DNA of 55,270 nucleotides from Candidatus Omnitrophota bacterium (lineage in GTDB: Bacteria; Omnitrophota; Gorgyraeia; 1-14-0-20-64-10): NCBI GenBank assembly GCA_016196465.1, contig JACPXR010000035.1, forward strand, positions 1 to 55,270, in the 5' to 3' direction. Each line of letters starts with the position of its first letter. The stretch's first letter is position 1. Shown here in pieces: positions 22,684-55,270 of the stretch. A model generated the notes under the pieces. That model saw only the letters and a list, made by a program, of their open reading frames with translations, did no database searches and was not told the origin of the DNA. Both the position numbers and the translations under genes were made by a program.

Positions 22684-24672
22684 ATGAGGTTAACCCAAGC
22701 GCTCACTCGAACGATAGGGATTTTCCTGTCGCTGGCCATCGCTTCGCCCGGCCCTGCCTACGGATTGCGCCAAGCCGGCCTCGAGGAGAATCCCAAGAGC
22801 CGCGGGGAGCTGAAAAGGGCCTTGACGATTCGCTCAGGATTGGAGGAGAAGGTGGTGGAAGTGAGAAACCTCGCTTTCGGCCAAGAGGTCACGGATGGGT
22901 TCGGGCATTCCGGGCCTGCCGGATTGAAGGTTAATATCCAGGGCAAGACCGTTGAGTTCGGATCGAGGGGTGTCGCCGAGATTCTCTTTCCCGGCAAGCC
23001 CGGCCGGCGGATTTATCTGGCCACCCACCACCAGATCGCCTACTGGATTCTGGCCAGGGCCTATGACCTCAGGTTGATTCCCCTCCGAGCGATCCGGCTT
23101 TTGTTCACCGACTGGCATGCGGATGATGCCATTTCCTACGAGGAGCCGCCTCTGGCTCCTTTGAGTGCGGTGGAAAGGTTTATCGGCGCCGGCAGGACCA
23201 CGACCAGCGTCAATCGGCTGGGCGCGACCCACCGGGCGGTGTACGAGGAAGATTTTGTGGATGCCCTGCTCAAGGCGGGGCTCATCGCCTCCTACGATTG
23301 GTACGGCAACCCGCGGCTTCCTCTCATGACAAAGCAGGACACCCCACAACGCTCCATCTTGGATTCTGCGCAGATCCCCCTTGCGGCAACCAACCTCGGC
23401 AGCATTGATCTGGACGTCGCCGGAGAGGATCTGGAGCATCTGCCGGAACTTTTCCCTCATCTTCTCAACCTCGCCAGAAAAAGCGAGATCAACATGATCT
23501 TCACGAGCCCCGGCTACGTGAAGGACCAGACCAAAGCGAAGTTGTTTGCCGCGGCGCTGGCCAACACGCTCATCGAGGTCAAGCGCTTGGAAGAGGAGGG
23601 GGAGATTGAGCGGCATCTCTCAGGCCGAAAGAGGGTCGAGCTAGTCCAGGCGGAAGGAACCGATCCAAAGGAGTTTGTCGATGAGCTGAACCGCCTCGGC
23701 AACGAAGCGCTGAGGTTTGTCTTATCTCAGATGGCGTTGGAGAAGGTTCTTGCGCCGATGAGACAGAGGCGGCCACGGCTCATCTTCGCTGATCTCGATC
23801 GGACCTCCTCGCCGGATGCCGATGCGCCTGCTGATCCCGAGGTACTGGCGGAAGTTCAAGCGCTTGCCCGAGAGGTCCCCGAGGCAAGGATCGTTCTTTT
23901 GACCGACCGGATGCCGGAGATTGTCCAGGAGCGCTTCGGGCGCTTCATCCCAGCCGATCTCACAGAGCGGGTCTTGGTGGCGCCGGTGGTTGGCGCTCAG
24001 GGGATGGGCTGGGTGGTTCCGCCGGAAGTGGAAGCGGTGATCGACGGCGTGATGGAGGAGGCGAGGCGGCGCGGGATTCGACCCGGGGATCCCGCTCAAG
24101 GGACTGGGAGCGGCAAGGTGCTTTTGCAGATGGACGGCAAAACCTACGGGATTGATGTCGAGTTCAATCTGGGGGAGATTCAAGCAGCCGATTTGGCGCA
24201 GAGCCGGGACAACCGATTGGAACTTGTCGCCTTGGCTCAGCGGAAGTTAGACCAAGCAGGGCTTTCCAGATTCCAAGTCTACTCAGGGGATGCCCGATCC
24301 ATCTCCATCTTTCCCCCCAAGGACGAGGGGGTCCGCTTCTGGCAGAGACGGTTTGGGGCGGCTGATGGCGAGGTCGCCTTCATCGATGACAACGGAAGCA
24401 GGCTCAGCTCCGCCCACTCAGGGCTCGTCGGAGTGGCCTCCCGCGGCGGGCTCTCAATCTGCTGCGGCACGCGCCCCGGCGATTACGAAGAACTGCCGAC
24501 CGACCTTGGAATCGTCATGACAAAAGGGCTCGCCACAGGCCCCAAAGTCGCCGCCATGGCCCTCCGGATGATCCGACAGGCCCACCGCGCCGTCGGCCTG
24601 GAGGAGGGGGAGAAGGCAGAGGCGGTGGGTGTGGGGGTCATCCAGGACCGGGAGGTGGAGAGGTGGCTTTAG
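22684..24672 (+). CDS. secreted GLEE-motif protein A: signal peptide, double-GLEE leader, His/Asp-rich N-terminal module, HAD-like phosphatase module, GLEE + 21-aa tail
   Basis: ATG 22684 gives MRLTQALTRTIGIFLSLAIASPGPAYG (signal peptide). GLEE codons at 22774-22788, 22834-22848 and 24592-24606. HAD motif I FADLDRT and motif IV-like FIDDNGS. The TTG 22627 start in the track adds a non-hydrophobic extension. Confidence 0.75.
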   Translation: MRLTQALTRTIGIFLSLAIASPGPAYGLRQAGLEENPKSRGELKRALTIRSGLEEKVVEVRNLAFGQEVTDGFGHSGPAGLKVNIQGKTVEFGSRGVAEILFPGKPGRRIYLATHHQIAYWILARAYDLRLIPLRAIRLLFTDWHADDAISYEEPPLAPLSAVERFIGAGRTTTSVNRLGATHRAVYEEDFVDALLKAGLIASYDWYGNPRLPLMTKQDTPQRSILDSAQIPLAATNLGSIDLDVAGEDLEHLPELFPHLLNLARKSEINMIFTSPGYVKDQTKAKLFAAALANTLIEVKRLEEEGEIERHLSGRKRVELVQAEGTDPKEFVDELNRLGNEALRFVLSQMALEKVLAPMRQRRPRLIFADLDRTSSPDADAPADPEVLAEVQALAREVPEARIVLLTDRMPEIVQERFGRFIPADLTERVLVAPVVGAQGMGWVVPPEVEAVIDGVMEEARRRGIRPGDPAQGTGSGKVLLQMDGKTYGIDVEFNLGEIQAADLAQSRDNRLELVALAQRKLDQAGLSRFQVYSGDARSISIFPPKDEGVRFWQRRFGAADGEVAFIDDNGSRLSSAHSGLVGVASRGGLSICCGTRPGDYEELPTDLGIVMTKGLATGPKVAAMALRMIRQAHRAVGLEEGEKAEAVGVGVIQDREVERWL

Positions 24673-24712
24673 GAAATTTCTTTGCAGGGCCGGGCGGAAG
24701 ATGCTATATTAG

Positions 24713-24738
24713 TATGTAGCTACATATGTAGCTACATA
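24713..24738. promoter_or_regulatory. perfect 26-bp palindrome (two abutting ATGTAGCTACAT units), probable TA operator overlapping a TATATT -10-like box
   Basis: TATGTAGCTACATATGTAGCTACATA equals its own reverse complement. It lies 16 nt upstream of the antitoxin ATG. TATATT at 24705-24710. Confidence 0.6.
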
Positions 24739-24753
24739 GAAGAGGAGGGGGCG

Positions 24754-25032
24754 ATGGTTCAATTTGTGAATGTTCGCAAGCTGAAGAACCAACTTTCCGA
24801 GGCGATCCGTTGGACGCGCAAGGGGGACGTGGTGGTCACCCGGCGCGGCAAGCCCCAGGCGGTGCTGCATCGGGTGAGCGAAGAAAATCTGGAAGATTAT
24901 CTTCTCGCGCACTCCGCCAAGTTCCAGAAGAGTCTGGAGGCCTCTTATCGGCAGTATCAACGCAAGGGCGGCATGGCCCTCGATTCTTTGATTGTCCAAG
25001 CCGAGCGAGAGCTTGCCCGTCTTCGCCGTTGA
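24754..25032 (+). CDS. Phd/YefM-family type II antitoxin
   Basis: ATG 24754 after GAGGAGGGGG. MVQFVNVRKLKNQLSEAIRWTRKGDVVVTRRGKPQAVL is a typical Phd/YefM N-terminus. Overlaps the downstream toxin gene. Confidence 0.8.
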   Translation: MVQFVNVRKLKNQLSEAIRWTRKGDVVVTRRGKPQAVLHRVSEENLEDYLLAHSAKFQKSLEASYRQYQRKGGMALDSLIVQAERELARLRR

Positions 25033-25279
25033 ATTTTCACCGGCGGCGCAGCGGGATCTCAGACGATTGGATCCCGCGATTCGGTTGCAGTTGCTTCGGG
25101 CAGCCGCAGTTCTGGGGCAAGGCCCCTTTCCATCGGCAGGGAGCAGGATTCAGCCCATGGTCGGGATCGTCCCGCGGCATTTCCGGCTGCGGATTGGAGA
25201 GTATCGATTGATCTACCGGGTTGAAGGAGAGAAGGTTGTCGTGGTCCGCGTGGCCCACCGCCGGGAGGCCTACCGATGA
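25013..25279 (+). CDS. RelE/ParE-family type II toxin
   Basis: ...FAVEFSPAAQRDLRRLD...FRLRIGEYRLIYRVEGEKVVVVRVAHRREAYR is a RelE/ParE signature. TTG 25013 is preferred (purine-rich upstream); TTG 24992 is an alternative. Confidence 0.78.
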   Translation: MPVFAVEFSPAAQRDLRRLDPAIRLQLLRAAAVLGQGPFPSAGSRIQPMVGIVPRHFRLRIGEYRLIYRVEGEKVVVVRVAHRREAYR

Positions 25280-25314
25280 TTGATTTTCCGATGGGGATAC
25301 GATAGAAAGGAACC

Positions 25315-28300
25315 ATGGAAAGAAAGATTGATCTGACAAAAACGCTCTGGCGCCCGGAGTTTGAGAAGGACTCCTGCGGGGTCGGCTTTGTGGCCGATGT
25401 CTCAGGGAAGCCCAGCCACCGGGTCCTTCGGATGGGGATCCAGGGGGTCTGCTGCGTGACCCACCGCGGGGCGGTCTCCGCCGACGCCAAGACCGGCGAT
25501 GGGGCAGGGGTCCTAACCCAGATTCCAAGGAAGCTCTTTGCCCGGGAGCTTGCCCGGCTGGGGCATCCCAAGGCAAGCGTGCAAGATTTGGCGGTGGGAG
25601 TCTTCTTTCTCCCGCAGGACCCCAGCTCCCGCATCGCCGCCAAGGGGATCGTTGACCGGATCCTCCGGGAACAGGGGCTCACCCTGTACGGCTGGCGGGA
25701 AGTGCCGGTCAACCCCGACGTGCTCGGAGAGAAGGCCCTCTCCACCCTGCCGGCGATCCAGCAGCTGTTGGTCGGGCGCGGGACGGTACCCGGCACCGAT
25801 TTCGAACGGCGGCTCTACTACACCCGCCGGCTGATCGAGAAAGCGTTTGCCCAGGCGCGGCTTTCGGACTGCTACATCCCCTCGTTTTCTTCCAGGACGA
25901 TCGTCTACAAGGGGCTTTTTGTGGCGCCCCAGCTTTCTTCCTTCTACGAAGACCTCACCGACCCGGCTTTTGAGACGGCGATCGCCCTCTTCCATCAGCG
26001 GTATTCCACCAACACCTTCCCCAACTGGATCCTCGCCCAGCCGTTCCGCCACCTGGGGCACAACGGGGAGATCAACACCCTCCTGGGGAACCGGAACTGG
26101 ATGCGGGCCCGGGAACCGGAGCTGAAGTCTCCGGTTTGGGGGGAGAAGATCCAGGACCTCATCCCGGTGATCCAGCCCGGCGGCTCCGACTCCGCCATGC
26201 TGGACAACGTGCTCGAGCTTCTCACGGCCTCCGGTTACAGCATCCTTCACGCGATGACGATGCTCGTCCCCGAGGCCTGGCAGAACATGCCCGGGATGGA
26301 CCAGAAACTGAAGTCCTTCTACGAATTCCAGGCCTGCCTCACCGAGCCGTGGGACGGCCCGGCGGCGCTGGCCTTCTCCGACGGTGTCGTGGTCGGGGCC
26401 GCCCTCGATCGGAACGGCCTGCGCCCCGCCCGCTACAAGGTGACGCGGGACGGCTTGGTGGTCTTGGGCTCCGAGGTGGGGATCGTGGACCTGGACGACG
26501 GGCAGGTGATCGAATCCGGCCGGCTGGGGCCGGGGCAGATGCTGGCGGTGGACACCGCCCGGAAGAAACTCCTCAGGGACCAGGAGATCAAGCATGAGCT
26601 TGCCAGCGACAAGCCGTATGCCGCCTGGCTTCATGAACGCATGCTCCGGGCCCACCTCCTGAACCTCAACGAGGGAAAGCTGCCGGTTTCCGTACCTGGT
26701 ACGAGGTTTGATCCGCTCATCCGGCAGTTGAAGGCCTCCGGCTTCACCCAGGAGGACCTCCAGTTCATCGTGAAGAGCATGGCCGAAACCGGCAAGGAGC
26801 CGGTCGGCTCGATGGGGGACGACGCCCCCCTGGCGATCCTTTCCAGGAAGCCCCGGATCATCGCCACCTATTTCAAGCAGCTCTTTGCCCAGGTGACGAA
26901 CCCCGCCATCGATCCCCTGCGGGAGCGGCTCGTCATGTCCCTGAACACCGGGCTGGGGGCCCGCGGCTCCATGCTTGAGGAGACCGCTGAGCATGCCAAG
27001 TGGATCAAGTTCGCCTCGCCGGTTTTGACCGAACCGGAGCTGGAATGGCTCTCGGAGCTGACGGATCCTGCGTTTAGGTCGATTCGTCTTCCGGCTCTCT
27101 TTCCCGCCCAAGCGGGGCCCCAGGGCCTCCGGCGGGCCGTGCAGAGGTTGTGCGAGACGGCCGCGGCGGCCGTCGACGCGGGCCACTCCATCCTCATCCT
27201 GACCGACCAGGGGATCGATGCTCAGCGCGCGGCGATCCCGATGCCGATGGCGGCGGGGGCGGTCCACCATTCCCTGATCCGGCAGGGGAAAAGGATGCGC
27301 TCCTCGATCGTCTGCGAGACGGCCCAGGTGTGGGACATGCACCATTTTTCGCTCTTGATCGGCTACGGCGCCGCCGCCATTCACCCCTACGGGATCTTCC
27401 GGGCGATCGCCTGGATGCATGCCTCCGGCCTCTTCAAAGGGGTCACCCTCGACCAGGCTTTCGCCAACTACAAGAAAGCGGTGGAGGACGGGATCCTCAA
27501 GATCATGTCCAAGATGGGGATCTCCACCGTGGCCAGCTACCGGGGCGGGCAGATCTTTGAGGCGATCGGCCTGAACGAGGAGGTGGTCGAGACCTGCTTC
27601 ACAGGGACCGTTTCCCGGATCGGGGGGGTGGGGTTTGAGCTGATCGCGAAGGATGTTCTCGCCCTGCATGCCTCGGCGTATCAGGGACAGTCCCCTTCGG
27701 GGACAGTCCCTGCGCAGCTCGATCCGGGCGGGTTCTACCGTTTCCGGAGGGACGGGGAGGCCCACGCCTTCAACCCCCAGGTGCTGGACGCCCTCCACAC
27801 CGCGGTCCACACGAACGAGTGGTCCGATTACCTGAAGTACGCGGAGTTTGTGAACGGCCGGGAGCCGATCTGTCTGCGGGACCTCTGGGAATTCTCTTCC
27901 GACCGGAAGCCGGTTCCGGTGGAGGAGGTGGAGCCGGTCGAGGCGATCCGCAGGCGCTTCTGCACCGCCGGGATGTCGTACGGCGCCCTTTCCAAGGAGA
28001 CGCACGAGTGCCTGGCGGTGGCCCTGAACCGGATCGGCGGGAAGTCCAACTCCGGCGAGGGAGGGGAAGATCCGGTCCGGTTTAAGCCCTTTCCGAACGG
28101 CGACTCCGCCAACAGCGCGATCAAGCAGGTCGCCTCGGGCCGGTTCGGGGTCACGCCGGCCTACCTCGCCAGCGCCCGGGAGCTGGAGATCAAGATCGCC
28201 CAGGGCTCCAAGCCGGGCGAGGGGGGCCAGCTTCCCGGCCACAAGGTGTCGGAGGAGATCGCCAGGGTTCGCCACTCCGTCCCCGGCGTGACGCTCATCT

Positions 28301-29847: not shown

Positions 29848-29873
29848 GCTGTCATTGCGAGCGAACGGAGCGA

Positions 29874-29904
29874 GCGAAGCAATCTGGATTGCTTCGCCAT
29901 TTTT
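29874..29904 (+). terminator. rho-independent terminator after gltB
   Basis: GCGAAGCAATC (29874-29884) pairs perfectly with GATTGCTTCGC (29887-29897), followed by CATTTTT. Confidence 0.7.
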
Positions 29905-29925
29905 CACCCAACTAGAGGAACCGTT

Positions 29926-32900
29926 TTGAAAAGAACTCGTCTCTGCTCATCTCTGCTTATCTTGGCCCTTGCTTTAAGCGGCACTCCCTCTGCCTTTGCC
30001 TTGCGCCCTCATGCCGACACCGCCGGCCTCGAGGAGAAACTCGCCCCCGCTCGCCCTTCGACAGGCTCAGGGCGAGATTCCCGCACCGGACTGGAGGAGC
30101 TTCCCTTCTGGCCGGGGGCGGCCGAGGTGGAGCCCTGGGGAGGCCCCGGCTTCATGCCGGTCCTCTTTACGAATGGAGAAGGCACCTTTGAGGTATCCGC
30201 CCATCTGTGGGATCTTCCTGTTCCGGCAGAACTGACCGCGGAGGAGAAGCGGACGGTCTACGGTCCCTGGATTTCTGACTCTCCAGAGAACCAGCGCGTT
30301 GGAGACCGTCCATTGAAGGATGCCCCCCCTCAAGTTCGCCTTGACATCGAGAAGCTTCTTCGCAGAGAGGTGGCTCAAACCCTTCACGCCCGCTACCGGC
30401 TACCCGGGGGAAACGGCGCCCTTGGAAAGGAGATGCAGGTGAAGATGGCTCTTCACAGCGTTCGCGTCTACATGCCCGGCGGGAATATCCGTTCCGGCCA
30501 GCCGAAGATGGAAGTCCTCTACAAGGCGGAAATCTCCGCCAGGGATCCTGTGGATTCCGCTTTTACGGTCCAGATCGCTTCGCCTGGCGGGAGGCAGTTT
30601 CGTCTGGGGCACAAGGGATGGATCCGGATCCAGCGGTGGAAGAGGGAGCTGAAGATGAAGCAGGCGATCCAGCCGGACGGGAAGGTGGTCCACGTGGTCC
30701 AGGTCCCCTCTTCGAGGGATGGATGGGTCCAGCGCAGGCCCCATGAGGATACCGGAACGGTGATTGAGCGGTTGGTCCATGAGGCCGCGGACCGGGCCCA
30801 GCCGGGCCAGAGGACCGTTCTGGCGGCGGACGTGGGCAGGGGGGCCGGGGCGACGGAAGGGAACGCCGACATTGTCGATCCGGAGGAAGTCTTGGATCTT
30901 TTGCCTGCCGAAGGAGGCAGCCGGGGGATCGACTGGATACACCTCTCTGAGCAAGGGATTTGGGCGGGTGTGCGCGGCCACCGGAGGGCTGAAATCGTCT
31001 TTGAAGGGACCCAAGAAAACGCCGAGGCCCTTATTCAAAACGCCAAACAGTTCCTGGAGGAGTTCCGGGGAGATTTTCCTCACTACAACGCTTGGATCGT
31101 TGTCCGGGAGGAGGGGACGGTACGCTTGGTGATCGTCCCGCGCAATTTCGGATGGTCGGACCAGGTGCTGTACATGGTTGATCTTGAATTTGACCGGCGC
31201 CGGTATCGCTTGGTGACCCGCGAGGAGGCAGACCGCTTCGGATGGCTCCATCTGGCTCCCGCGGGGAGCAGCGATTTTGTCATTCCGCCGGGCCGGCCGG
31301 TTCTCCCTTTTGCCGTGGACGCCCTCGCCCTGTACGGTTTTGTTCAAGCGCGCGATCCGGCGCATTACAACGACTGGTATTTGAAGCCCAGAATCGACAA
31401 GGGGCTTGAGCTGGCCGGCCTTCCCCGAAGCGATTCGAGGATTCAAGCCATGCTGAAGTGGATGAGGGATCATTCCGGGAAAGATCCCAAGAGGCAGGCG
31501 AGACGGGAGATCCTCAAGGCGTTCAATCTCCTCCGGAATGCCGATACCCCGGATGATCTTATTCGGCTGATCAAGGCAATCCAGGCGATGCGGCCCCGGC
31601 ATGAGGAGGCGTTTAAAGGCCTTCCCCCCCGGCTGCGGGACCGGTTTACCAGAGAACTCTGGAAGAAGATAGCGGAGTTTTCGAGGAGCCATCCCCAGCG
31701 GGTTCGGATTGAGATTTCCGCCTTGGGGGCTCCGGTGAAGCGTCACCAGAACGGAGAGCTCCCGGTGGTGGTGGGGGTCGGAGCCCCTGTCCTGGATTTG
31801 ATCGAGACGGTCGAGCAGGATACCCTCGTCGTCCGCCCCAAAGCGGGGGGCTCCCCCTTCCACATCGTTCAGACGGTCAGCGCTTTGAATGAGGTTCCCG
31901 TGGAATTGGTGGCGATGTTGGGCGGTGAGACGGGGAGACTGGTTTTTCAGGCGCTCGACGCCCAGGGGATACCGGTGACCCGGGTGGAAGGCCCTCCCCA
32001 ATGGGAGAACCGGGCGAGCGACATGGTGCCTCGTCCCGCCGCCTTGGGGTATCAAGGAGAGATCCGGCTGGTGGGCACCGGCTCTGACCCGTCGCTTGGG
32101 ATCCAGGATGTCCGGAGGATCTGGAAGGCGGTGCGGGAGAGGTTGGCTGGCAAAAAGGGCGTCGTCATCTACGGCGAGCGGATTGCGGGAAGTCGCAATC
32201 AGCAAAGGGCGGTCGCTGAGACGGTCAAGGAGGAGATGGAAAAGACGCTTCAAGAGGGACACCGGATCTGCGTTTCGTACAACGCCTCCTGGTCCGGAGA
32301 GATTGCGCGGATTCTGCTGGGTTCCGGCGCCTGGGGCGTTTTCCTGGATCTGGGGGCCCTCGCCAGCGCGGCCGGAAGTTTCGTGGAGGACCGAGAATTT
32401 CTGAGGCATATGCCCCCTTTTGTTCAGGAGAATCCGGAGCTTCTTACCGACCCCAATTTCCTTCGGGAGTATCAGGAGGAAGCGGCGCTCTTGGCCCACG
32501 CGATCCGCCTGAAACAGGACGTGAAATGGGGGCTCGTTTCTTTGGGCGCGCCCGGCTTGGTGCTGGTGCCGGGTGATGAATGGCGGCAGGGACGGCCCTC
32601 CGTCCTTCTGGGGTTTTCTTACTACCGAAGCGGCGCGGCGGATGGCGCTTTTGGGGGACTGCTGGAGGTGATGCTTCGGGAGCCGGGTCCTTCCAGCGCT
32701 CCGGCGCTTCAGGCGCTCGAGACGGCGACCACCTCTGCCGGAATTTACTCCAAGCGTCCCCCGGCCCTGCGGGGAGTCCCACCGACCGCCGATGAGATCC
32801 GGCAGGCCCCTCTTCCTGACGTGCGGGTCATTTTGCCGCCGCTCTCCGTCCGGGAGGAGGCCTATGCAAGTGAGGAGGCGAGGTTGGATTTGGAAGAAGC

Positions 32901-33339
32901 CGGCGGCCCTCCCCATCGGTTTTTTCAGGAGATTTTCAGGCATCTTGCCTCTTTTCCAGGCAACAACGATTCCGAGGGGCGGCTCGCTCCCTGGTGGAGG
33001 GCTTTAGGCCAGATGCGGTTGGGAGAGATCTTTGAGAACAGAGTGGGAAGTGCCGGAGGTCGCCTGATGCTTCTGCGGGCCCTTGCCGAGTTGCCCCAGC
33101 CTCCCGGTGGATCACTCCCTGCCCAAGAGGGAGAGGATCTTTCTGCTCGGCGCCTGCACCATCAGCAATGGAGGGAATCTCCCCAGGGCGTCTATTGGTT
33201 GATGACACGGTTGGTCCATCAATTTGAAGATCCGCTTCGGAGAGAGATTCGCTTCCTGACCGGGCTGGAGGGGAGGGGGGCAATGGTTGAGTGGGAGGAT
33301 TGGATCCGAAACGCGGGGAAACTGGAGAGAAATCTCTAA
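29926..33339 (+). CDS. secreted GLEE-motif protein B: signal peptide, double-GLEE leader, unknown N-terminal modules, PfkB/ribokinase-like module, GLEG + 21-aa tail
   Basis: TTG 29926 lies 6 nt after AGAGGAA and gives MKRTRLCSSLLILALALSGTPSAFA (signal peptide). GLEE at 30022-30036 and 30085-30099; GLEG at 33259-33273. PfkB-like KAGGSPFHIVQTVSAL...SGAADGAFGGLLE. Confidence 0.75.
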   Translation: MKRTRLCSSLLILALALSGTPSAFALRPHADTAGLEEKLAPARPSTGSGRDSRTGLEELPFWPGAAEVEPWGGPGFMPVLFTNGEGTFEVSAHLWDLPVPAELTAEEKRTVYGPWISDSPENQRVGDRPLKDAPPQVRLDIEKLLRREVAQTLHARYRLPGGNGALGKEMQVKMALHSVRVYMPGGNIRSGQPKMEVLYKAEISARDPVDSAFTVQIASPGGRQFRLGHKGWIRIQRWKRELKMKQAIQPDGKVVHVVQVPSSRDGWVQRRPHEDTGTVIERLVHEAADRAQPGQRTVLAADVGRGAGATEGNADIVDPEEVLDLLPAEGGSRGIDWIHLSEQGIWAGVRGHRRAEIVFEGTQENAEALIQNAKQFLEEFRGDFPHYNAWIVVREEGTVRLVIVPRNFGWSDQVLYMVDLEFDRRRYRLVTREEADRFGWLHLAPAGSSDFVIPPGRPVLPFAVDALALYGFVQARDPAHYNDWYLKPRIDKGLELAGLPRSDSRIQAMLKWMRDHSGKDPKRQARREILKAFNLLRNADTPDDLIRLIKAIQAMRPRHEEAFKGLPPRLRDRFTRELWKKIAEFSRSHPQRVRIEISALGAPVKRHQNGELPVVVGVGAPVLDLIETVEQDTLVVRPKAGGSPFHIVQTVSALNEVPVELVAMLGGETGRLVFQALDAQGIPVTRVEGPPQWENRASDMVPRPAALGYQGEIRLVGTGSDPSLGIQDVRRIWKAVRERLAGKKGVVIYGERIAGSRNQQRAVAETVKEEMEKTLQEGHRICVSYNASWSGEIARILLGSGAWGVFLDLGALASAAGSFVEDREFLRHMPPFVQENPELLTDPNFLREYQEEAALLAHAIRLKQDVKWGLVSLGAPGLVLVPGDEWRQGRPSVLLGFSYYRSGAADGAFGGLLEVMLREPGPSSAPALQALETATTSAGIYSKRPPALRGVPPTADEIRQAPLPDVRVILPPLSVREEAYASEEARLDLEEAGGPPHRFFQEIFRHLASFPGNNDSEGRLAPWWRALGQMRLGEIFENRVGSAGGRLMLLRALAELPQPPGGSLPAQEGEDLSARRLHHQQWRESPQGVYWLMTRLVHQFEDPLRREIRFLTGLEGRGAMVEWEDWIRNAGKLERNL

Positions 33340-34636: not shown

Positions 34637-34637
34637 T

Positions 34638-36221: not shown

Positions 36222-36223
36222 CT

Positions 36224-41019: not shown

Positions 41020-41107
41020 GGGTTGCGGCGGCAGGCGGCCATCCCCTTCGTCACTCCTCCTCACCCCCCAAGTTTCGTTTTGCTTCGCCAACGAAACAAA
41101 ACTCTAA

Positions 41108-42594: not shown

Positions 42595-42598
<4 letters not shown>
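41108..42598 (+). CDS. pepA: leucyl aminopeptidase (M17)
   Basis: [26 protein letters not shown] and [14 protein letters not shown] motifs. 496 aa. Confidence 0.93.
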
Positions 42599-45518
<2,920 letters not shown>

Positions 45519-45522
<4 letters not shown>

Positions 45523-46571: not shown

Positions 46572-46574
46572 GGG

Positions 46575-48317: not shown

Positions 48318-48323
48318 AAGCCC

Positions 48324-49166
48324 ATGCCTAAGGTCGCCCCGGCGCAATACAAGACGAAGGTCGAACCGGTCTGGTGCCCCGGCTGCGGAGACTTTGGGGT
48401 GTTGAACGCCCTGTGCAACGCCCTTTCCGCCAAGGAGACAGACCCGAAGAACCTCGTCTTCATCTCCGGAATCGGCTGCTCGGGACGGCTCCCTCCTTAT
48501 GTGAAGTCGTACGGCTTTCACACGGTGCACGGCCGGGTTCTTCCGATCGCCACCGGGGTGAAGGTGGCCAATCCGGACCTCACCGTCGTGGCGGTGGGAG
48601 GCGACGGCGACGCCTTCGCCATCGGCGGCGGCCACATCCCCCACATGGCCCGCCGGAATCCGAGCATCGTCTACCTCGTCATGGACAACGGCACCTACGG
48701 CCTCACGAAGGGGCAGGCCTCGCCGACCGGGCCCCTGGGGATGAAGACCGGCGCCTCTCCTTATGGAACGATCGAGCCCCCCTTGAACCCGATCGCGATG
48801 GCCTTGGGGTACGACATCTCCTTTGTGGCCCGGGCCTACTCGGGGAAGAACAAGGAGCTCGAGGCCCTCATCTCGCGGGCCCTTTCCCACAGGGGATTTT
48901 CCCTCATTGACGTCATCTCTCCCTGCATCACCTTCTACAACACCTACAAGGAGCTTCCGCCCCAGCTTGCCTCCGTCCCGCCGGACCACGATGTGAAGGA
49001 CCGGGCGAAGGCCTTCGAGCTTGCCTTGAAGACCGACAAGATCTACCTCGGGCTCTTCTACGAGGCGGAGCGCCCCACCTTCGAGGAGAGGATCCGGGCC
49101 ACGATCGACCAGGCCGAGGCGAGCGGCATCCCCCGCCTCGACGAAATCTTCCTCGAATTCGCGTAG
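48324..49166 (+). CDS. korB: 2-oxoacid:ferredoxin oxidoreductase, beta (ThDP-binding) subunit
   Basis: WCPGCGDFGVLNAL, GIGCSGR, GGDGDAFAIGGGH and MDNGTYGLTKGQ motifs. 280 aa. Confidence 0.9.
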   Translation: MPKVAPAQYKTKVEPVWCPGCGDFGVLNALCNALSAKETDPKNLVFISGIGCSGRLPPYVKSYGFHTVHGRVLPIATGVKVANPDLTVVAVGGDGDAFAIGGGHIPHMARRNPSIVYLVMDNGTYGLTKGQASPTGPLGMKTGASPYGTIEPPLNPIAMALGYDISFVARAYSGKNKELEALISRALSHRGFSLIDVISPCITFYNTYKELPPQLASVPPDHDVKDRAKAFELALKTDKIYLGLFYEAERPTFEERIRATIDQAEASGIPRLDEIFLEFA

Positions 49167-49184
49167 CCTCCGTTCGTCTCCCCC

Positions 49185-49239
49185 TTGACAAATAGCAGCA
49201 GGGTGTGCCATAATTGTACTAGATGTATGAAACGTACAA
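49185..49239 (+). promoter_or_regulatory. sigma70-like promoter (TTGACA-N18-CATAAT) with overlapping inverted repeat TTGTAC-N14-GTACAA, likely the TA operator
   Basis: TTGACA at 49185-49190 and CATAAT at 49209-49214. Inverted-repeat arms at 49214-49219 and 49234-49239, just upstream of the antitoxin SD GGGAGG (49242-49247). Confidence 0.6.
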
Positions 49240-49252
49240 ATGGGAGGTGCGT

Positions 49253-49495
49253 ATGCGAATTTCTGCCAGTCGGGTCCGTGAAAACTTCTCGGACACCCTG
49301 AATCGGGTCGCCTATCGGAAAGAACGGATTGTGCTTCGCCGCAGAGGAAAGGACTTAGCGGCGGTCGTCCCCATCGAGGATCTCACTCTTCTTGAGGAGA
49401 TGGAGGACCGGATAGATCTCGAGGCTGCCCGGAAAGCACTGAAAGAGAAGGGAACGATTTCTTGGAACAAGCTGAAGGCTAAGCTCGGACTGTAG
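49253..49495 (+). CDS. Phd/YefM-family type II antitoxin
   Basis: ATG 49253 lies 5 nt after GGGAGG. MRISASRVRENFSDTLNRVAYRKERIVLRRRGKDLAAVVPIEDL is a typical N-terminus. Confidence 0.8.
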   Translation: MRISASRVRENFSDTLNRVAYRKERIVLRRRGKDLAAVVPIEDLTLLEEMEDRIDLEAARKALKEKGTISWNKLKAKLGL

Positions 49496-49501
49496 TTCCA
49501 G

Positions 49502-49765
49502 GTGCGATACACCCTCGAATTTAAACCTTCAGCCGCGCGCGAATTCTCTAAGCTTCCCAGACCCGTTCAGGTGAGCATCAGGCCTCGGATTGACGCCTTA
49601 GTAGATAACCCCCGTCCCCATGGTGTAGAGAAGGTTGCCGGCGGGGAGGACCTCTTTCGTATCCGAGCAGGAGATTATCGGGTTGTTTACCAGGTCCAGG
49701 ACGACCGACTCTTTATCTTGGTCGTTCGAGTCGGCCATCGCCGAGAAGTTTACCGAGGCCTCTAA
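49502..49765 (+). CDS. RelE/ParE-family type II toxin
   Basis: GTG start. RYTLEFKPSAAREFSKLP...FRIRAGDYRVVYQVQDDRLFILVVRVGHRREVY. 87 aa. Confidence 0.82.
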   Translation: MRYTLEFKPSAAREFSKLPRPVQVSIRPRIDALVDNPRPHGVEKVAGGEDLFRIRAGDYRVVYQVQDDRLFILVVRVGHRREVYRGL

Positions 49766-49801
49766 CACGTTGCAAGATTACCGTACAGTTTTGCAACGTG
49801 T
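49765..49801 (+). other. perfect 11-bp stem-loop (ACACGTTGCAA / TTGCAACGTGT, 15-nt loop) overlapping the toxin stop codon
   Basis: Arms at 49765-49775 and 49791-49801. No U-tract follows, so it is not a canonical intrinsic terminator. Confidence 0.5.
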
Positions 49802-49854
49802 GAAAGAGCCCTCGGCGCGATAGCAGTTAAACAGAATAAACTCAGATAGTTCCC

Positions 49855-49884
49855 TTGCCAGAATCCCTCCGCTTCGGGTATATT
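49855..49884 (+). promoter_or_regulatory. possible sigma70-like promoter for the giant ORF (TTGCCA-N18-TATATT)
   Basis: Hexamers at 49855-49860 and 49879-49884, about 20 nt upstream of ATG 49905. Confidence 0.3.
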
Positions 49885-49904
49885 TGATTTATCTAGGCAA
49901 CCCG

Positions 49905-52900
49905 ATGAAACGCCTCAGCTTAACTCTCCCATTGGCGGCGATCTGTCTCCTGGCCGCCCTCACTGCACCCGCGACCAGCCACGCCGCAGGAGGGCGTAGT
50001 GGTGCCGCTTCCGCTAGCGGCAGCCACGCCCTGCGGCAGGAGGCCCCCGGCCGCGACGACAACCGCCCCCTGAACGACGAGCTCCGCACCGGCCTGGAGG
50101 AGCGCGTAAACTCGGTACCGGGTACCGTGAGGACAGGTTCCGCCGGGCTGGAGGAATGGCCCGGTTTCCTGGACCCGGTGGATTTCGGGAGGATCATCGC
50201 ATGGTTGAGTGAGCAGCTCTCCGAGGGACCTCTTCGAGATCCAGAAGACCGGATCACTTTGCCGGAGATCATCCGTCATATCCAAACGAGTTCGGCGTCC
50301 GGCCAGAATTTGGGCCCGTTCGGTCAGGTGTCTGGGGAGAAAGTGGCCTTCTTTGTCCAGAAACTGCCGTTTCTCATCACGGGCCAGCCGGATCCTCCAC
50401 CGGATGCGCTTCCCCACGGATATGAGCTGAAGCGTTTCTTCAATTTCTTCCTGGAGGTTGCCGTTTCTGTGCTTGAGCTAAACGAGGCAGGCACGATTCG
50501 CGCGGCGATGACATCGCGAGAAATGGCCGACCAGGTGCTGCACCGATTTTTCTCCACAACTTTATCTGATCGTCCCCCGACGCTGGGCACTTCGGAATTC
50601 AATCTTCAGATGGCGGATCTTTTCATGACAGCCGACGAACAACGGATGGCCACTTATCGCGCTTTGGAGTTTTTGCATTTCTCCGCCGGGCTGGAGGAAG
50701 TCGAGAATGTCATCGACGAGATCACGGGAAGAATCCAAGGACTTTTAAGGGGTTGGATTCCCCGGACAAGTCTTGATTGGTCGGAGAAAGAGCAAGAAGC
50801 CTTGCTCCCTCGCCTCCGTATTGTTCTCGACGCCGGAGACCTTCGAAACGAGGTCGGCCTCGTGGTCCGATGGTTCGATGGGATCGTTGGAACCAGGGCG
50901 CTGGTCGAGGCCTGGGAGGATTCCCAGCGGGCGGACGTGCTCCTGAACGCAGTGGTTTTTTATATGGGAGGTACCTCCCAATCCACGAAGGGCGACATTC
51001 GAGCCGTCAACGAACGCTTGCTGAACGGCTCACTGTCCCTGCCGTTTCTTCAGGAGGTATTCCGCTTGAATCCGGCGCTCTATGGGAGACTCCTGTTTCA
51101 CATCGGCTTGAGCTCGGGCAGGTTTGACAGTTCGAACATGCAATCGAACATTCGAAGAATTCTCGAGGGTTCTTCAGGAGAGTTGGAGCGATCGGCGCTT
51201 CTTTCTGCCTATGACGCGCATCAGGCCTCGCTGATTCCGGACTATTCTGCTCTTCAGCTGGATGAATTAGAAAGGGTACTCGCGTCGCAGCTTCCGGATC
51301 GGATCCAGCGGCTGATTTCCGCCATGGAGGGAAGTTCTCTGCCCGGCGTCGATTTTTGGAAGCAACGGATTGACGTTGCACCGTGGCAGTCGCCGGAGAA
51401 TCTCGAAAAGACGCTTCGCTGGGTCGAAGAGCAAGACTTCTTTTTGCTCGAACGCGTCGACGCCCAATGGAGGCTGTTCGAGCGATATGGAATAGAAGGT
51501 CCCCCGGTCAACAAATATCTGGAAGAGTGGGCGGATCGAGAGGGGATAGGACGGCTGGGAAGGATAGGTCTTCCTGCCACGATCGCGGCGGTTCAGTTGT
51601 TGCTGCAAGAATCCAGGGACACCCCTTCCACGTTGGAGCGAATGGAACAAATTCTGGAGCGGTTAGGCTTGTTTGCTCCGAATGGCTTAAGCCGCAGCGA
51701 GGGGATTCCTGGAGAAAATCCTTACGGGGATATCCTTTTTCTCGCTCAGTTACCAGAAGATCTCACCGCCGCATCCTCCTCAAGGACGATTTTCTTGGAC
51801 AGATGGCGTCAAGCGAAAATGGAGTTTTACCGAGATAACGGATTGGAGGTCATCCCGCCCTTTGTCCCCTTCCATCGCACCGCCGGGCTGGAGGAGCGGA
51901 AACTTCCCGGTGATTTTTCCTACGAGGCGGTCGAGATCACCCCCTACTCTCCCGCAGGCCGGCAGTTTGGGAATCGATTGGAGGAATTTCGAGGCAGATT
52001 TTTCAGGAACCGACAGACGCAACATCTGTATGTACTGGACACTCCAAGTATCTCCCTGCTGTCTCTATGGCCTACCAAGAACGATCCAGCCAGACAGTAT
52101 CTGGGGTTCCGGCTAGCCCGGGTGCTGCGGGCCAATGTGCCGGACGTTGTCTTTCCTTCGAAGTCGGAACGGAAAGTCTTCTCGGATTATCTGGGGCTTC
52201 CCTCCGGGAGTGAGATTTACCTAGAGAGAGTGACAACCGATTACAAGTTAAAGGACGAGGAAGTTCTGCAAAAGGATTCCAGGAGAGCATTCACGTGCAG
52301 TCTCGTTGTAGCGATTTTTATGCGCAAGTTCGATTTTCACGATCACAATCTGGGTCCCTTAGGAGATTCAGACATTCCCATGATGTTTGATCACGATGAA
52401 GCGTTCCAGTCCGAATATGTGAATATGGAAGACTTCACCATTGCCTTTGTCCGGAACCATTTCCCTCGCGATTCGGTGAACGCAGGCTGGATCAATCCCA
52501 ACCGGCTGTTGGAGCGGATCGACCGGGAGGAGCTCTCCCGCTCCGCGGAGGCGGTTGAGGCGCTTGATCTCTCCGGTTTCTTCGAGCAGCTAAATCGGGA
52601 TCTTCCGGAAGATCTGGATTTAGATGCAAGAATCGTTCCCCTGATCGAATATCTGAAACTTCGGCAGAGGTCCATCCGGCAAGATCTGATCAGTTTTTTC
52701 GGCTGGCTGGCTTCTCCCGATGGGAAAATGCGGATCCAGTATGGGGACAAAAACTGGACGGAAATCGGTTATTCTCGGCCTCCTCGCCTCACATTCAGAC
52801 AGATCCGCTCTGCCCTCGCCCGCGCCGGGCTGGAGGAGGCGGTGCAGTTTGTGCAGCCCGGGGAGGTTCAAGGTTTTGAGAAACCAGTCTTCAATCAGTG

Positions 52901-55270
52901 GGGAGGTAAAGATCATCAGCAATTCACCACCCTGGCCTTGCTGAATTATCTTAAGCTTGATCCATCCACGGTTGTTTTCAACGTAGCCTATGGAGATCAT
53001 CCATTGACGCTTCCAGAGCCCTGGCAGGAACCGGTCAATGTAGATCCGGATCCGTTTGCACCGCCCACTAACCCTTTGAGAGCCAAGTATCTCGTTGATA
53101 CTGTGGAAGGAGCCGTTGACAAAGGACATTCTGCCGGCGTAGTTTTGCTGTACCGACCAGGGGTGATGCCTTTTTGGAACGATCAATTCTTCCAAAAAAC
53201 GTGGGCGTTGGTTCAGCCGGGAGGATGGCTCTTCTTGATTCAGCCATTCCCATTGCGGATGATTAACAGAAGGTTAGTTGACTTTTATTCGGCCTTTCAT
53301 CAATCCATCCAGCCCAGGAGCCCCTTGGAGGTCATTGCTGTGAGTCCTGACGGCTCGCTGGATCAGGCCCTGGCGCTTCTTCTCCAGAAACCAAAATCTC
53401 CCACCACGCAGATTCCGCTTGCTCCAATTGCCACCCCCCGCGCCGGGCTGGAGGAGCCACCCAGCGATGCTGAGGTGGAGCGAGTGATCCAGTGGGCATT
53501 TGGACAAGCTCGACTGGTTGATCATTGGTTGGCTATCGGGACAATCGGCCAATGGCATGGATCGGACCAGTTTAGCGAATCTCTTGCGAAGTGGCAGAAA
53601 CCTTTCATGGCGGCTCTGTTATCGAACTTATCGGCTGCTGATGATGATTCTCTGGAAGAAAGCCAGAGGGCGCGGGTGGCATTGAAACAGTTGGCTTTTC
53701 GGGGAATTACTCCCGAGATCTTGGGATTGCCCGAGATCAGCGACCGACAACTGCGAGCCAGACTGGTACCGGGTACCGCAGGGCCAGGTACCACCTCCGC
53801 TCGGCCCGTCGGCCTGGAGGAGCGGGATCGCGAAATTCAGAGGGCCTACCAGGTTCTCCTTGCGCCGGCCGAGGATTTGAATGAGCGGTTGAAACGGTTG
53901 AGGATTGCTTTGGAGGGCTTGGATGGCGGCCAGCGGCTGAAATTCTTTCGGGAACTCCTCTGGATCATGGGCCGAAGGGAAATCCCGGAGGTCGTGGGCG
54001 CTGTTCTGAAGGGACAAGGGGAAGATTCCTCCCTTTTGAGAGAGAGATTGTTCGAGGCCATGAGAATAGATTCTGAGCGCGCAATTCTTCCGGTTCTTGA
54101 AGGAGCCCTTTCAAGACTTCATCCTCGTGAGGTTGCAACGATTTCTCTGGTTTTCATTCCCGCGGCCGCCGTCCTCCTGTCGGCAGATACCTCCGAACGC
54201 CTCCAGGATCTATTCGAGCTTTCGATCCTCAGGGCCTCTCTTCATGTTTTTGAGGAGAGAACGGAATCGGGTCAGCAGCATGCCGTACCCTATCTGAGGC
54301 TAAGCCACATTTGTGAAGTGAAGACGCGGCAGTATTCCGCCCAAGCCCTGGAACTCACCGGCACCAGCCATCCCCATCCTATGGCCTTGTACGCGGCAGG
54401 CCTTTCCATGGTCTACAGTGCCTTGGCCTCTGTTTACGCGGGGATCGATTTCGAGATGATGAATCGAGGTGAAAGGATGCTTTTTCCAATCTCAGAAAAA
54501 GTTTCAGCAAAGATCGATGCGATGAGGGCGAATATCCAAGGCGAGATCAGCACAATGACAGGTACCCTCTTCGGGCACTTGGATTTACTGCTTGCCTCTT
54601 ATCGCGGTGACGACATTCTTTCTTTGCAGCTCCTCATGTTCCGGGTTGAACTGGATCGAGCTTGTGCCACCTACTTCCGGCTCAACGGCTCAGAGGATGC
54701 GGTTGGGTACTGGCAGGATGCCCGCCGAACAGAAGAGCAAATCCAACAGATCGTTCTCAAACATGAACGTTCCCTCGGCCTGTCGGTTTCCGAAGCAGGT
54801 CTTGAGGCGGAACCGTCCAAACTGGTACCGGGTACCCAGGGGACAGGTTCCGCCGCCGCCCCGCGCGCCGGGGCGGAGGAGCCGCTTTTTCTGACGGAGA
54901 TAAACCTCCAGACGCTTGCTGGCAGGAGCGAGTTGACATCTTTCTACCGGTGGCCGAATCAGATGAGACTCTTGGAGGAGATGATTCTGCCCGATCTCTT
55001 CCAGCGTAAACCGAGCGGGGAGGTTCTCATCGTAAATCTGGCAAGTGCCATGGGAGAGGAGACTACCACAACGGCAGCCGTGGTTCTTCGAGCGAGAGAC
55101 CAATTCGTCTCAAAAGGAGACCCAACCTCGCTGAAGGTCCGCGTTGTTGGCGTGGAGATCGATCCAGAGATTCACGAGAAAGCCCGCCGCCGGCTGGCTG
55201 GTAAAGAGGGACTCTGGTTTCTCCCCTGGGGACAACCCATCGACAGAACACGACGTGCGAAAGCGCTGTT
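49905..55270 (+). CDS. secreted GLEE-motif giant protein C (3' end outside the window; at least 1788 codons): signal peptide, double-GLEE leader, at least 7 modules including kinase-like, Rossmann-methyltransferase-like and CheR-like
   Basis: Read codon by codon on every sequence line: no stop from ATG 49905 to the window end. In-frame TAG upstream at 49821-49823. N-terminus MKRLSLTLPLAAICLLAALTAPATSHA (signal peptide). Not in the supplied ORF track. No other frame has an ORF longer than about 190 aa here. Confidence 0.85.
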   Translation, partial: MKRLSLTLPLAAICLLAALTAPATSHAAGGRSGAASASGSHALRQEAPGRDDNRPLNDELRTGLEERVNSVPGTVRTGSAGLEEWPGFLDPVDFGRIIAWLSEQLSEGPLRDPEDRITLPEIIRHIQTSSASGQNLGPFGQVSGEKVAFFVQKLPFLITGQPDPPPDALPHGYELKRFFNFFLEVAVSVLELNEAGTIRAAMTSREMADQVLHRFFSTTLSDRPPTLGTSEFNLQMADLFMTADEQRMATYRALEFLHFSAGLEEVENVIDEITGRIQGLLRGWIPRTSLDWSEKEQEALLPRLRIVLDAGDLRNEVGLVVRWFDGIVGTRALVEAWEDSQRADVLLNAVVFYMGGTSQSTKGDIRAVNERLLNGSLSLPFLQEVFRLNPALYGRLLFHIGLSSGRFDSSNMQSNIRRILEGSSGELERSALLSAYDAHQASLIPDYSALQLDELERVLASQLPDRIQRLISAMEGSSLPGVDFWKQRIDVAPWQSPENLEKTLRWVEEQDFFLLERVDAQWRLFERYGIEGPPVNKYLEEWADREGIGRLGRIGLPATIAAVQLLLQESRDTPSTLERMEQILERLGLFAPNGLSRSEGIPGENPYGDILFLAQLPEDLTAASSSRTIFLDRWRQAKMEFYRDNGLEVIPPFVPFHRTAGLEERKLPGDFSYEAVEITPYSPAGRQFGNRLEEFRGRFFRNRQTQHLYVLDTPSISLLSLWPTKNDPARQYLGFRLARVLRANVPDVVFPSKSERKVFSDYLGLPSGSEIYLERVTTDYKLKDEEVLQKDSRRAFTCSLVVAIFMRKFDFHDHNLGPLGDSDIPMMFDHDEAFQSEYVNMEDFTIAFVRNHFPRDSVNAGWINPNRLLERIDREELSRSAEAVEALDLSGFFEQLNRDLPEDLDLDARIVPLIEYLKLRQRSIRQDLISFFGWLASPDGKMRIQYGDKNWTEIGYSRPPRLTFRQIRSALARAGLEEAVQFVQPGEVQGFEKPVFNQWGGKDHQQFTTLALLNYLKLDPSTVVFNVAYGDHPLTLPEPWQEPVNVDPDPFAPPTNPLRAKYLVDTVEGAVDKGHSAGVVLLYRPGVMPFWNDQFFQKTWALVQPGGWLFLIQPFPLRMINRRLVDFYSAFHQSIQPRSPLEVIAVSPDGSLDQALALLLQKPKSPTTQIPLAPIATPRAGLEEPPSDAEVERVIQWAFGQARLVDHWLAIGTIGQWHGSDQFSESLAKWQKPFMAALLSNLSAADDDSLEESQRARVALKQLAFRGITPEILGLPEISDRQLRARLVPGTAGPGTTSARPVGLEERDREIQRAYQVLLAPAEDLNERLKRLRIALEGLDGGQRLKFFRELLWIMGRREIPEVVGAVLKGQGEDSSLLRERLFEAMRIDSERAILPVLEGALSRLHPREVATISLVFIPAAAVLLSADTSERLQDLFELSILRASLHVFEERTESGQQHAVPYLRLSHICEVKTRQYSAQALELTGTSHPHPMALYAAGLSMVYSALASVYAGIDFEMMNRGERMLFPISEKVSAKIDAMRANIQGEISTMTGTLFGHLDLLLASYRGDDILSLQLLMFRVELDRACATYFRLNGSEDAVGYWQDARRTEEQIQQIVLKHERSLGLSVSEAGLEAEPSKLVPGTQGTGSAAAPRAGAEEPLFLTEINLQTLAGRSELTSFYRWPNQMRLLEEMILPDLFQRKPSGEVLIVNLASAMGEETTTTAAVVLRARDQFVSKGDPTSLKVRVVGVEIDPEIHEKARRRLAGKEGLWFLPWGQPIDRTRRAKAL
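50114..50156 (+). repeat. linker repeat copy 1: GGTACCGGGTACC-N4-GGACAGGTTCCGCC-GGGCTGGAGGA (encodes VPGTVRTGSAGLEE)
   Basis: Shares the 13-mer and the 14-mer exactly with the copy at 54824. Confidence 0.8.
53765..53822 (+). repeat. linker repeat copy 2: GGTACCGGGTACC...GGCCAGGTACC...GGCCTGGAGGAG (encodes VPGTAGPGTTSARPVGLEE)
   Basis: Same 13-mer as the other two copies, then a diverged middle section that ends in the GLEE codons. Confidence 0.75.
54824..54881 (+). repeat. linker repeat copy 3: GGTACCGGGTACC-N4-GGACAGGTTCCGCC...GGGGCGGAGGAG (encodes VPGTQGTGSAAAPRAGAEE)
   Basis: Same 13-mer and 14-mer as copy 1. The motif is degenerate here (GAEE). Confidence 0.8.

Follow-up and report, generated by a model that had tools for sequence, protein, structure and literature searches.

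Introduction

In MARTX and large clostridial toxins, autoprocessing takes place after Leu at inter-effector sites and is carried out by a cysteine protease domain (CPD) of the same polypeptide; MARTX toxins leave the cell by type I secretion and lack a Sec signal peptide. In polymorphic toxins, a demarcation motif (VENN in CdiA, PxxxxDPxGL in Rhs) occurs in one copy before the C-terminal toxin, and an immunity gene follows; at this strictly conserved peptide, homology among the proteins stops, unrelated modules start and swapping takes place. The surface adhesins of Mycoplasma hyopneumoniae carry an endoproteolytic S/T-X-F↓X-D/E motif, and the gingipain/HagA precursors are secreted bacterial polyproteins; in both cases several mature products arise. 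Sorting signals such as LPXTG/sortase, PEP-CTERM/exosortase, GlyGly-CTERM/rhombosortase and the C-terminal domain (CTD) of the type IX secretion system consist of one C-terminal copy with a transmembrane helix and a basic tail, or of a folded CTD. Here, we describe a tetrapeptide, Gly-Leu-Glu-Glu (GLEE), that recurs in the products of three genes (A, B and C) of a 55,270-bp window, which is a complete contig (JACPXR010000035.1) of a Candidatus Omnitrophica metagenome-assembled genome. Omnitrophota are uncultured ultra-small bacteria with a suspected host-dependent or predatory lifestyle, and we know of no account of how they deliver proteins to other cells.

The extended element R-x(0,1)-[A/S/T/V]-G-L-E-E brackets every cargo segment in A, B, C and P0005, a relative from a second organism. 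Judged from their sequences, the four proteins would form a lineage-restricted family of predicted Sec-exported carriers whose cargo segments appear to be unrelated orphan sequences. We tentatively favour the view, while giving it less than an even chance, that the motif is an endoproteolytic processing site used after export, which would double as the in-frame border at which modules are exchanged.

The GLEE motif could not be assigned to any known sorting signal or family of toxin-processing sites. An earlier note made from the DNA letters (hereafter, the sequence-only reading) had compared the pattern to MARTX and large clostridial toxins. The carriers resemble these in being large, predicted exported multi-module proteins with unrelated cargo split by short repeated linker sites. 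However, the comparison fails because A, B and C contain no cysteine protease domain: Pfam and NCBIfam searches revealed neither Peptidase_C80/CPD nor any other protease domain in them. Moreover, Leu is followed by Glu-Glu at the GLEE sites, whereas the CPD site is Leu plus a small residue. As in polymorphic toxins, homology between members ends exactly at the motif (match over 50143-50698), a likeness in behaviour and not in membership, since the carriers hold 3-8 copies per protein, two of them in the leader, and lack CdiA, Rhs, FHA/YD and toxin domains as well as any evident immunity gene. With the Mycoplasma adhesins and the gingipain polyproteins they share a lineage-specific short motif that recurs in multi-domain proteins with export signals, but motif and phylum are different, and those systems were proven by proteomics while the GLEE carriers are known from sequence alone.

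The comparison with sorting signals gave a similar picture. Like the classical ones, GLEE is short, private and limited to some of the signal-peptide proteins, and complete members have one copy near the C-terminus. The proposal of a dedicated sorting tag is nevertheless not borne out in its classical C-terminal form: most copies are N-terminal or internal and, unlike in sortase, exosortase, rhombosortase and archaeosortase signals, no transmembrane segment is present in the tails after the last copy (GEKAEAVGVGVIQDREVERWL, RGAMVEWEDWIRNAGKLERNL and ESVLGSQL; 21, 21 and 8 aa). The statement that no named sorting signal matches agrees with the lack of any match to an NCBIfam sorting-domain model. 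The carriers also differ from double-glycine substrates of C39 peptidase-ABC exporters, whose N-terminal leader is no Sec signal peptide and ends in GG, GA or GS, as all four have Sec-type signal peptides, [A/S/T/V]-G stands before Leu, and copies are also internal and C-terminal. Likewise, the type IV prepilin (class III) signal processed by A24 peptidases (G↓[F/M]xxxE plus a hydrophobic helix of ~20 residues) has no counterpart here, where the sequence after GLEE is polar or variable and forms no hydrophobic helix. A literature search retrieved no description of a "GLEE motif", and "AGLEE" combined with "cleavage" gave irrelevant matches only; a recent preprint on long proteins of Omnitrophota mentions neither polyproteins nor cleavage.

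Results

Distribution and consensus of the GLEE motif

The carrier genes and their features, all on the forward (+) strand, are the following:

22684..24672, +, gene A (MBI3317940.1 / HYZ90_02165, hypothetical protein), 662 aa from the ATG at 22684; the open reading frame (ORF) opens at TTG 22627
22684..22764, +, predicted signal peptide of A, MRLTQALTRTIGIFLSLAIASPGPAYG, then LRQ (from the sequence, a hydrophobicity heuristic and the leader alignment)
22777..22788, +, A site 1, (RQA)GLEE, in the leader
22837..22848, +, A site 2, (IRS)GLEE, in the leader; codons GGA TTG GAG GAG
24595..24606, +, A site 3, LRMIRQAHRAV-GLEE, then 21 residues to the stop
29926..33339, +, gene B (HYZ90_02185, hypothetical protein), 1137 aa, orphan
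29926..30000, +, predicted signal peptide of B, …LALALSGTPSAFA, then LRP
30025..30036, +, B site 1, (DTA)GLEE
30088..30099, +, B site 2, (SRT)GLEE, then LPFWPG
33262..33273, +, degenerate terminal site of B, LRREIRFLT-GLEG, 21 residues to the stop; context like A site 3 and C site 975
49905..55270, +, gene C (HYZ90_02275, partial), at least 1788 aa, runs past the window end
49905..50030, +, predicted signal peptide region of C; cleavage after TSHA (residue 27) or GSHA (residue 42), then LRQ
50091..50102, +, C site 1, ELRT-GLEE; matches P0005 site 2 (24 nt, 96%)
50145..50156, +, C site 2, GSA-GLEE, then WPGF; left edge of the P0005-homologous block
50157..50687, +, C module 1, predicted all-alpha domain
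50688..50699, +, C site 3, FSA-GLEE; right edge of the P0005-homologous block
51885..51896, +, C site 4, HRTA-GLEE
52827..52838, +, C site 5, FRQIRSALARA-GLEE
53445..53456, +, C site 6, TPRA-GLEE-PPS
53758..53823, +, C linker cassette RLVPGTAGPGTTSARPV-GLEE, holding C site 7 (53811-53822)
54817..54882, +, C linker cassette KLVPGTQGTGSAAAPRA-GAEE, holding the degenerate GAEE (54870-54881)
54933..55190, +, C segment resembling a CheR-type S-adenosylmethionine methyltransferase, starting 17 aa after GAEE; borderline Pfam match (26.4 bits, cut-off 27)

The sequence-only reading had counted 12 GLEE copies in the window, every one of them in A, B or C. A six-frame search combined with the called genes led to the same result: 14 occurrences were found, 12 of them in frame in the three genes and the other two (15610 and 46594) in frames outside genes. 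The coordinates first given were 3 nt upstream of ours, as they included the preceding small residue, and the gene total of about 48 (~45 other proteins) was too high, with ~36 genes called here (A, B, C and 33 others, the latter amounting to 13,641 aa). The 3,609 aa of A, B and C contain these 12 copies, where composition predicts 0.23 and none of 20,000 shuffles gave more than 4. GLEE is the most frequent tetrapeptide of the three proteins. In contrast, the other 33 called genes contained none (0.70 expected). None of the conservative variants GLDE, GIEE, GVEE and GMEE was present.

The motif extends beyond the tetrapeptide. All 12 copies are preceded by A, S, T or V, and in nine of them an Arg lies within three residues upstream, usually at a distance of two or three. 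Position counts were made over 19 sites, namely the 12 GLEE of the window, five sites of P0005 and the two degenerate ones (GLEG and GAEE), and gave A10/T5/S2/V2 at -1, Arg in nine at -2 and Pro in six at +2. Pro, Gly, Ser and Thr were enriched upstream of the sites. A position-weight scan of the window proteins was bimodal, with true sites scoring 17-25 bits, GAEE 12.7 and the best site elsewhere 7.4. Two types of upstream context were observed: linkers rich in Pro, Gly, Thr and Ser, and Arg-bearing amphipathic helices. Among the latter, A LRMIRQAHRAV-GLEE, C FRQIRSALARA-GLEE and B LRREIRFLT-GLEG form one set, and C RALEFLHFSA-GLEE forms another with P0005 RVLEVLHSSA-GLEE and RMLEVLQVRT-GLEE.

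Leader and overall plan of the carriers

According to the hydrophobicity heuristic, A, B and C have the only signal-peptidase-I-type signal peptides in the window; a DUF3108 lipoprotein-like gene is without the motif. The N-terminal architecture proposed at the outset was recovered in full: AYG, AFA and SHA close the signal peptides of A, B and C, LRQ, LRP and LRQ come next, and two GLEE copies follow, 16, 17 and 14 residues apart; the 17-mer GCCGGCCTCGAGGAGAA is indeed common to A and B at the first site. With P0005 included, the leader covers ~45 residues (signal peptide, LR[P/Q], GLEE, 14-17 residues, GLEE); its invariant positions in the alignment are the two GLEE copies and the L-R next to the signal peptide. 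Further downstream, the spacing in C (181, 399, 314, 206, 122 and 353 residues) is as reported. A last copy 21 residues before the stop had been claimed for A and B; the position is correct in both, but in B the copy is GLEG and not GLEE. In the three complete proteins, A, B and P0005, the last copy stands 21, 21 and 8 aa before the stop. The overall plan is a leader with two GLEE, one or more units of cargo plus GLEE, and a short tail.

All three complete carriers end in Leu. The tails of A and B (24607-24672 and 33274-33339) have exactly 21 residues and finish in (V/L)-E-R-(W/N)-L, while P0005 ends in …GSQL (positions 2070-2096 of its contig), a possible C-terminal element seen in three carriers.

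Apart from the borderline CheR segment in C, the three proteins had no significant Pfam, NCBIfam, PADLOC, PHROG or PDB match. PDB sequence searches with A, B, C and three sub-regions gave nothing, tblastn against plasmids found no match, and the segments between motifs showed no similarity to one another. By eye, A seemed to contain a DxDxT as in HAD proteins, B a stretch resembling pfkB, and module 3 of C a kinase-like DxHxxN; these impressions had no statistical support and were not relied on. No motif of 7 nt or more was common to three or more of the DNA regions upstream of A, B, C and P0005. Composition set the carriers apart: C has 55.6% GC and a GC content at third codon positions of ~0.61, versus 62.9% and ~0.8 for the window, and the codon usage of A and B is atypical (0.15-0.18 bits per codon versus 0.35-0.6 in neighbouring genes), which suggests foreign origin or relaxed codon selection.

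A relative in a second organism and its homology boundaries

A HMMER profile of the 12 site windows was searched against 1.84 billion representative proteins (E<=1e-3) and returned seven: A, B, C, one further genuine carrier (P0005, 605 aa, 5 GLEE) and three tandem-repeat artefacts (P0003, P0006 and P0007). The claim that the motif is private was therefore upheld to the extent that four multi-copy carriers with genuine sites were detectable in this collection. New proteins score ~10 bits per site, so that only carriers with about four or more copies can be detected, and four is thus a lower bound. Word-index protein searches with C and B returned the queries only; the search with C missed P0005, which was in that collection and shares with C a 185-aa block at 71% identity, so these self-only matches are not proof that B and C lack relatives. 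An X-padded motif alignment search gave five candidates and no matches, and no relatives of the leader plus module 1 alignment, of A or of B were found in genome and metagenome contig collections. Among the artefacts, P0007 (405 aa) is unrelated to the carriers; it is RING-finger-like, has a hydrophobic segment at the C-terminus and holds seven tandem PDRARS[DE]R[AT]GLEE repeats. These repeats are coincidental, and R-A-G-L-E-E can arise through simple repeat expansion.

P0005 comes from a 2,414-bp Logan contig (L001) of SRR22388040, whose GC content (57%) is near that of C. A RelE/ParE-like toxin gene (positions 3-194; 33% identity by tblastx) lies directly upstream of P0005 and an aconitase-like gene downstream, and a Phd/YefM antitoxin and ParE toxin pair (49223-49765) lies directly upstream of C. 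With a toxin gene upstream of both, the locus is syntenic and toxin-antitoxin-adjacent.

The leader of P0005 reads AWA, then LRPQTDRS-GLEE-KLSIHPQPVEGQELRT-GLEE-WPGF. When its contig was compared to the window by blastn, 77% nucleotide identity was found, confined to 50143-50698, that is, from the second to the third GLEE of C, with an additional 24-nt match around ELRTGLEE. Module 1 has 185 aa in each protein, with no indel and 71% amino acid identity, and its dN/dS of 0.23 (dS 0.77) indicates a working protein segment under purifying selection. C and P0005 have only the leader and this first module in common and become unrelated straight after the third GLEE; the later sites of P0005 are …RMLEVLQVRT-GLEE and …EIAA-GLEE, and 8 residues follow the last of them. 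Despite the dS of 0.77, all three sites aligned between C and P0005 are conserved, so that the position of the motif is kept in the relative while its codons change synonymously. Compared to P0005, C lacks the first leader copy and carries an inserted 54-nt unit of spacer plus GLEE resembling its own internal linkers. Hence, both leaders keep two copies by different routes.

That copies stand at module boundaries, as first proposed, agrees with this homology break, with the GAEE 17 aa before the CheR-like domain and with the predicted structure around the third GLEE of C (see below).

Codons and DNA repeats at the sites

Codons at the window sites vary (GGC/GGA/GGG; CTC/CTG/TTG; GAG/GAA), and two P0005 sites read GGT TTG GAA GAA and GGA TTG GAA GAA, without GGAGG. 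This synonymous variation, within the window and in P0005, indicates that what is conserved is the peptide. Within C, the junctions are also related as DNA. An 18-nt direct repeat, TCCGCCGGGCTGGAGGAA, occurs in identical copies at 50139-50156 and 50682-50699, flanking module 1. A 66-nt linker cassette (…LVPGT-x-G-x-G-[ST]…P-[RV]-x-G-[LA]-EE) is found at 53758-53823 and 54817-54882 with 77% identity, and its first 32 nt recur in the C leader (50114-50145) with 91% identity to the copy at 54824. Five C sites share GCCGGGCTGGAGGA, and codons at the C sites are more uniform than the usage of the gene predicts, with GGG in 6/8 versus 21% usage (P=1.5e-3) and CTG in 7/7 versus 31%. These observations indicate that junction units were copied within C, while selection holds the peptide between genes and organisms.

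The 13-mer GGTACCGGGTACC, which consists of two adjacent KpnI palindromes and codes for VPGT, occurs exactly three times (50114-50126, 53765-53777 and 54824-54836). All three exact copies are in C linker cassettes; with up to two mismatches, there were nine matches versus 0.86 expected. A reading of the sites as a DNA repeat or restriction site (CTCGAG/CCTCGAGG) was rejected, since only two sites carry it and codons vary.

The DNA repeats raise the question of whether the motif is a junction or scar left by recombination and of little importance biochemically. The 12-18-mers coding for GLEE would then be in-frame repeats for duplication, insertion and exchange of modules, comparable to the direct repeats flanking antigenic-variation cassettes and to the junction motifs of polymorphic toxins, and the peptide would be only tolerated. 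The identical 18-mer around module 1, the related 66-nt and 32-nt cassettes (77-91% identical), the shared GCCGGGCTGGAGGA, the uniform codons and the 54-nt insertion in the leader are what this explanation expects. However, between genes and organisms the synonymous positions differ while the four residues are invariant, which points to selection on the peptide; the Arg at -2/-3 and the small residue at -1 are amino acid features, and 12 nt with variable third positions are too short for homology-driven exchange among A, B, C and P0005. The sites also differ from Rickettsia RPE-like elements, which measure ~100 bp or more and are frame-independent: only three C junctions share 32-66 nt, the other sites having in common only the 12-15 nt that code for the motif, always in frame and with synonymous variation. 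We consider it unlikely that the motif is a scar of this kind, although such an origin is compatible with processing at the sites and does not exclude it.

Predicted structure around the sites

AlphaFold2 (AF2) modelling of A without an alignment was unusable (mean predicted local distance difference test score, pLDDT, 35). For C 1-282, a two-sequence alignment gave a pLDDT of 61.6 and a predicted template modelling score of 0.61, with module 1 modelled as all-alpha (pLDDT 70-83). In this model, GLEE #3 (262-265) coincides with a low-confidence break between helices 243-259 and 266-281, and GLEE #2 follows a disordered stretch. On this basis, the motif was judged not to lie within folded cores; together with its kept position in P0005, the sequence-only reading thus withstands two of the refutations that it had named for itself. 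A Foldseek search of the model against the PDB produced no match (best E 0.67).

Discussion

Proposed post-export processing and its alternatives

In the reading that we favour, the element would be recognised after export by a dedicated endopeptidase encoded outside the window. Such a protease would trim the leader, separate the modules of multi-module members (C and P0005) and remove the short C-terminal tail, as in the maturation of a polyprotein or pro-protein. Moreover, with each module bracketed by the same in-frame site, modules could be inserted, lost or exchanged without damage to their neighbours, and exchange at the sites would account for both the homology breaks and the DNA repeats. 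The sequences show the motif itself, its restriction to the carriers, its place at boundaries, its persistence under synonymous change and the duplication of junctions as DNA within C; export, recognition by a protein, cleavage, a scissile bond and an enzyme are what we infer. Processing is preferred because the motif is enriched in the carriers and otherwise rare, the cargo is bracketed, the site is conserved at the peptide level and homology breaks exactly at it, and the purifying selection on module 1 indicates that the carriers are working proteins.

Several points weigh against it. The window encodes no secreted or periplasmic protease or sortase, its only peptidases being a cytosolic-type M17 aminopeptidase and an A24 prepilin peptidase. 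The cores of A and B (~580 and ~1,050 aa) have no internal site, so not every domain boundary is marked. In the AF2 model, GLEE #1 of C falls within a predicted helix, and several sites come directly after amphipathic helices, where accessibility is not assured. The need for two sites in the leader is not accounted for, and the positional statistics rest on 19 sites from four proteins of two organisms.

The motif could instead be bound and not cut. A partner met after Sec export (for example a chaperone, a scaffold, a surface anchor or a translocon of the outer membrane) would dock on it or sort by it, and the number of copies would raise avidity. The exact break of homology at the sites is not predicted by docking, though the same exclusivity, conservation at the protein level and placement in the leader speak for it. 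Two copies always directly after the signal peptide suit targeting, and some sites are at helix ends and not in evidently flexible linkers. On the other hand, targeting needs neither the bracketing of each module nor a place 8-21 aa before the C-terminus, and no linked partner gene was found in the window. Altogether, we regard docking as improbable to the same degree as the scar.

Still less probable is a structural element with no recognition function, in which Gly stops a helix and the acidic residues form an N-cap or linker that is re-used between domains. Such caps tolerate many sequences, whereas the four residues of GLEE do not vary from one non-homologous context to the next, near-variants are absent, the motif is missing from the 13,641 aa of other proteins and scores are bimodal; its support comes from the several sites that follow predicted or apparent amphipathic helices (LRMIRQAHRAV-GLEE, FRQIRSALARA-GLEE and RALEFLHFSA-GLEE). 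Finally, a signal in the RNA, with the Shine-Dalgarno-like GGAGG in CTGGAGGAG pausing ribosomes or starting internal translation at module boundaries, is scarcely credible and effectively refuted by the synonymous variants in P0005: GGAGGAG is found in most window sites and GGAGG is kept in the degenerate GLEG and GAEE, but GGAGG is missing from 2/5 P0005 sites, which have TTGGAAGAA, and A site 1 and B site 1 have CTCGAGGAG. Start codons are not found at any constant spacing downstream of the sites, and LEE, for which the RNA is the same, appears 16 times in other proteins, where the Gly and the small residue do not accompany it.

To return to processing, the first interpretation of the motif as a maturation or sorting signal is reasonable but unproven, while the observation behind it was confirmed and extended by the longer motif, the shared leader, the second organism, the boundary-exact homology and the DNA-level junction repeats. 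A bolder version would be that Omnitrophota of this lineage possess Sec-exported polyproteins with unrelated orphan effector modules, freed by a GLEE-specific endopeptidase at R-x-[AST]-G-L-E-E and shuffled as cassettes at the same sites; taken as a whole, this scenario is doubtful. More speculatively, the [AST]-x-x-E-E core may mimic the Glu-methylation sites of chemoreceptors, an idea prompted solely by this resemblance and the CheR-like domain in C. If the motif were a processing signal, it would represent a new system of bacterial polyprotein maturation, leader plus GLEE would be a simple sequence handle for listing the secreted effector repertoire of Omnitrophota, and the carriers would illustrate how, in nature, modules are exchanged in frame at a defined site. 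Even as a recombination scar only, it would still record the way in which orphan multi-module proteins are built up. The immediate impact is limited by a distribution that, as far as known, is very narrow (two organisms).

Genes around the carriers

With the three carrier genes aside, the window (63% GC) is ordinary core chromosome. Its housekeeping genes are ilvD, ilvB/N, leuA, an A24 prepilin peptidase gene, aroC, dprA, topA and xerC/D. The A24 gene (5676-6476), between leuA and aroC, encodes the sole membrane protease of the window. Further genes are gltB, two-component systems, those for a cysteine desulfurase and the M17 aminopeptidase, folE, thiC and nadA, together with a 2-oxoacid:ferredoxin oxidoreductase-like pair, the Phd/ParE toxin-antitoxin pair and a cluster of Kdo-transferase and lipid-A/heptosyltransferase genes.

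This lipopolysaccharide cluster contains two unusual fusions (14624-16639 and 16569-18803). In one, an ELM1-like domain is fused to a lipid-A acyltransferase (Lip_A_acyltrans), and in the other a GT4 glycosyltransferase to a GT9 heptosyltransferase; three more GT9 genes follow. The ORFs at 18728-19828 and 19156-20769 overlap heavily and both match GT9, pointing to a mis-called start or a frameshift.

Gene A is followed downstream by gltB, and B by a response regulator on the opposite strand. Between gltB and B, a GC-rich inverted repeat (GCGAAGCAATC…GATTGCTTCGC, 29848-29925) is probably the gltB terminator, and B is therefore likely to have its own promoter.

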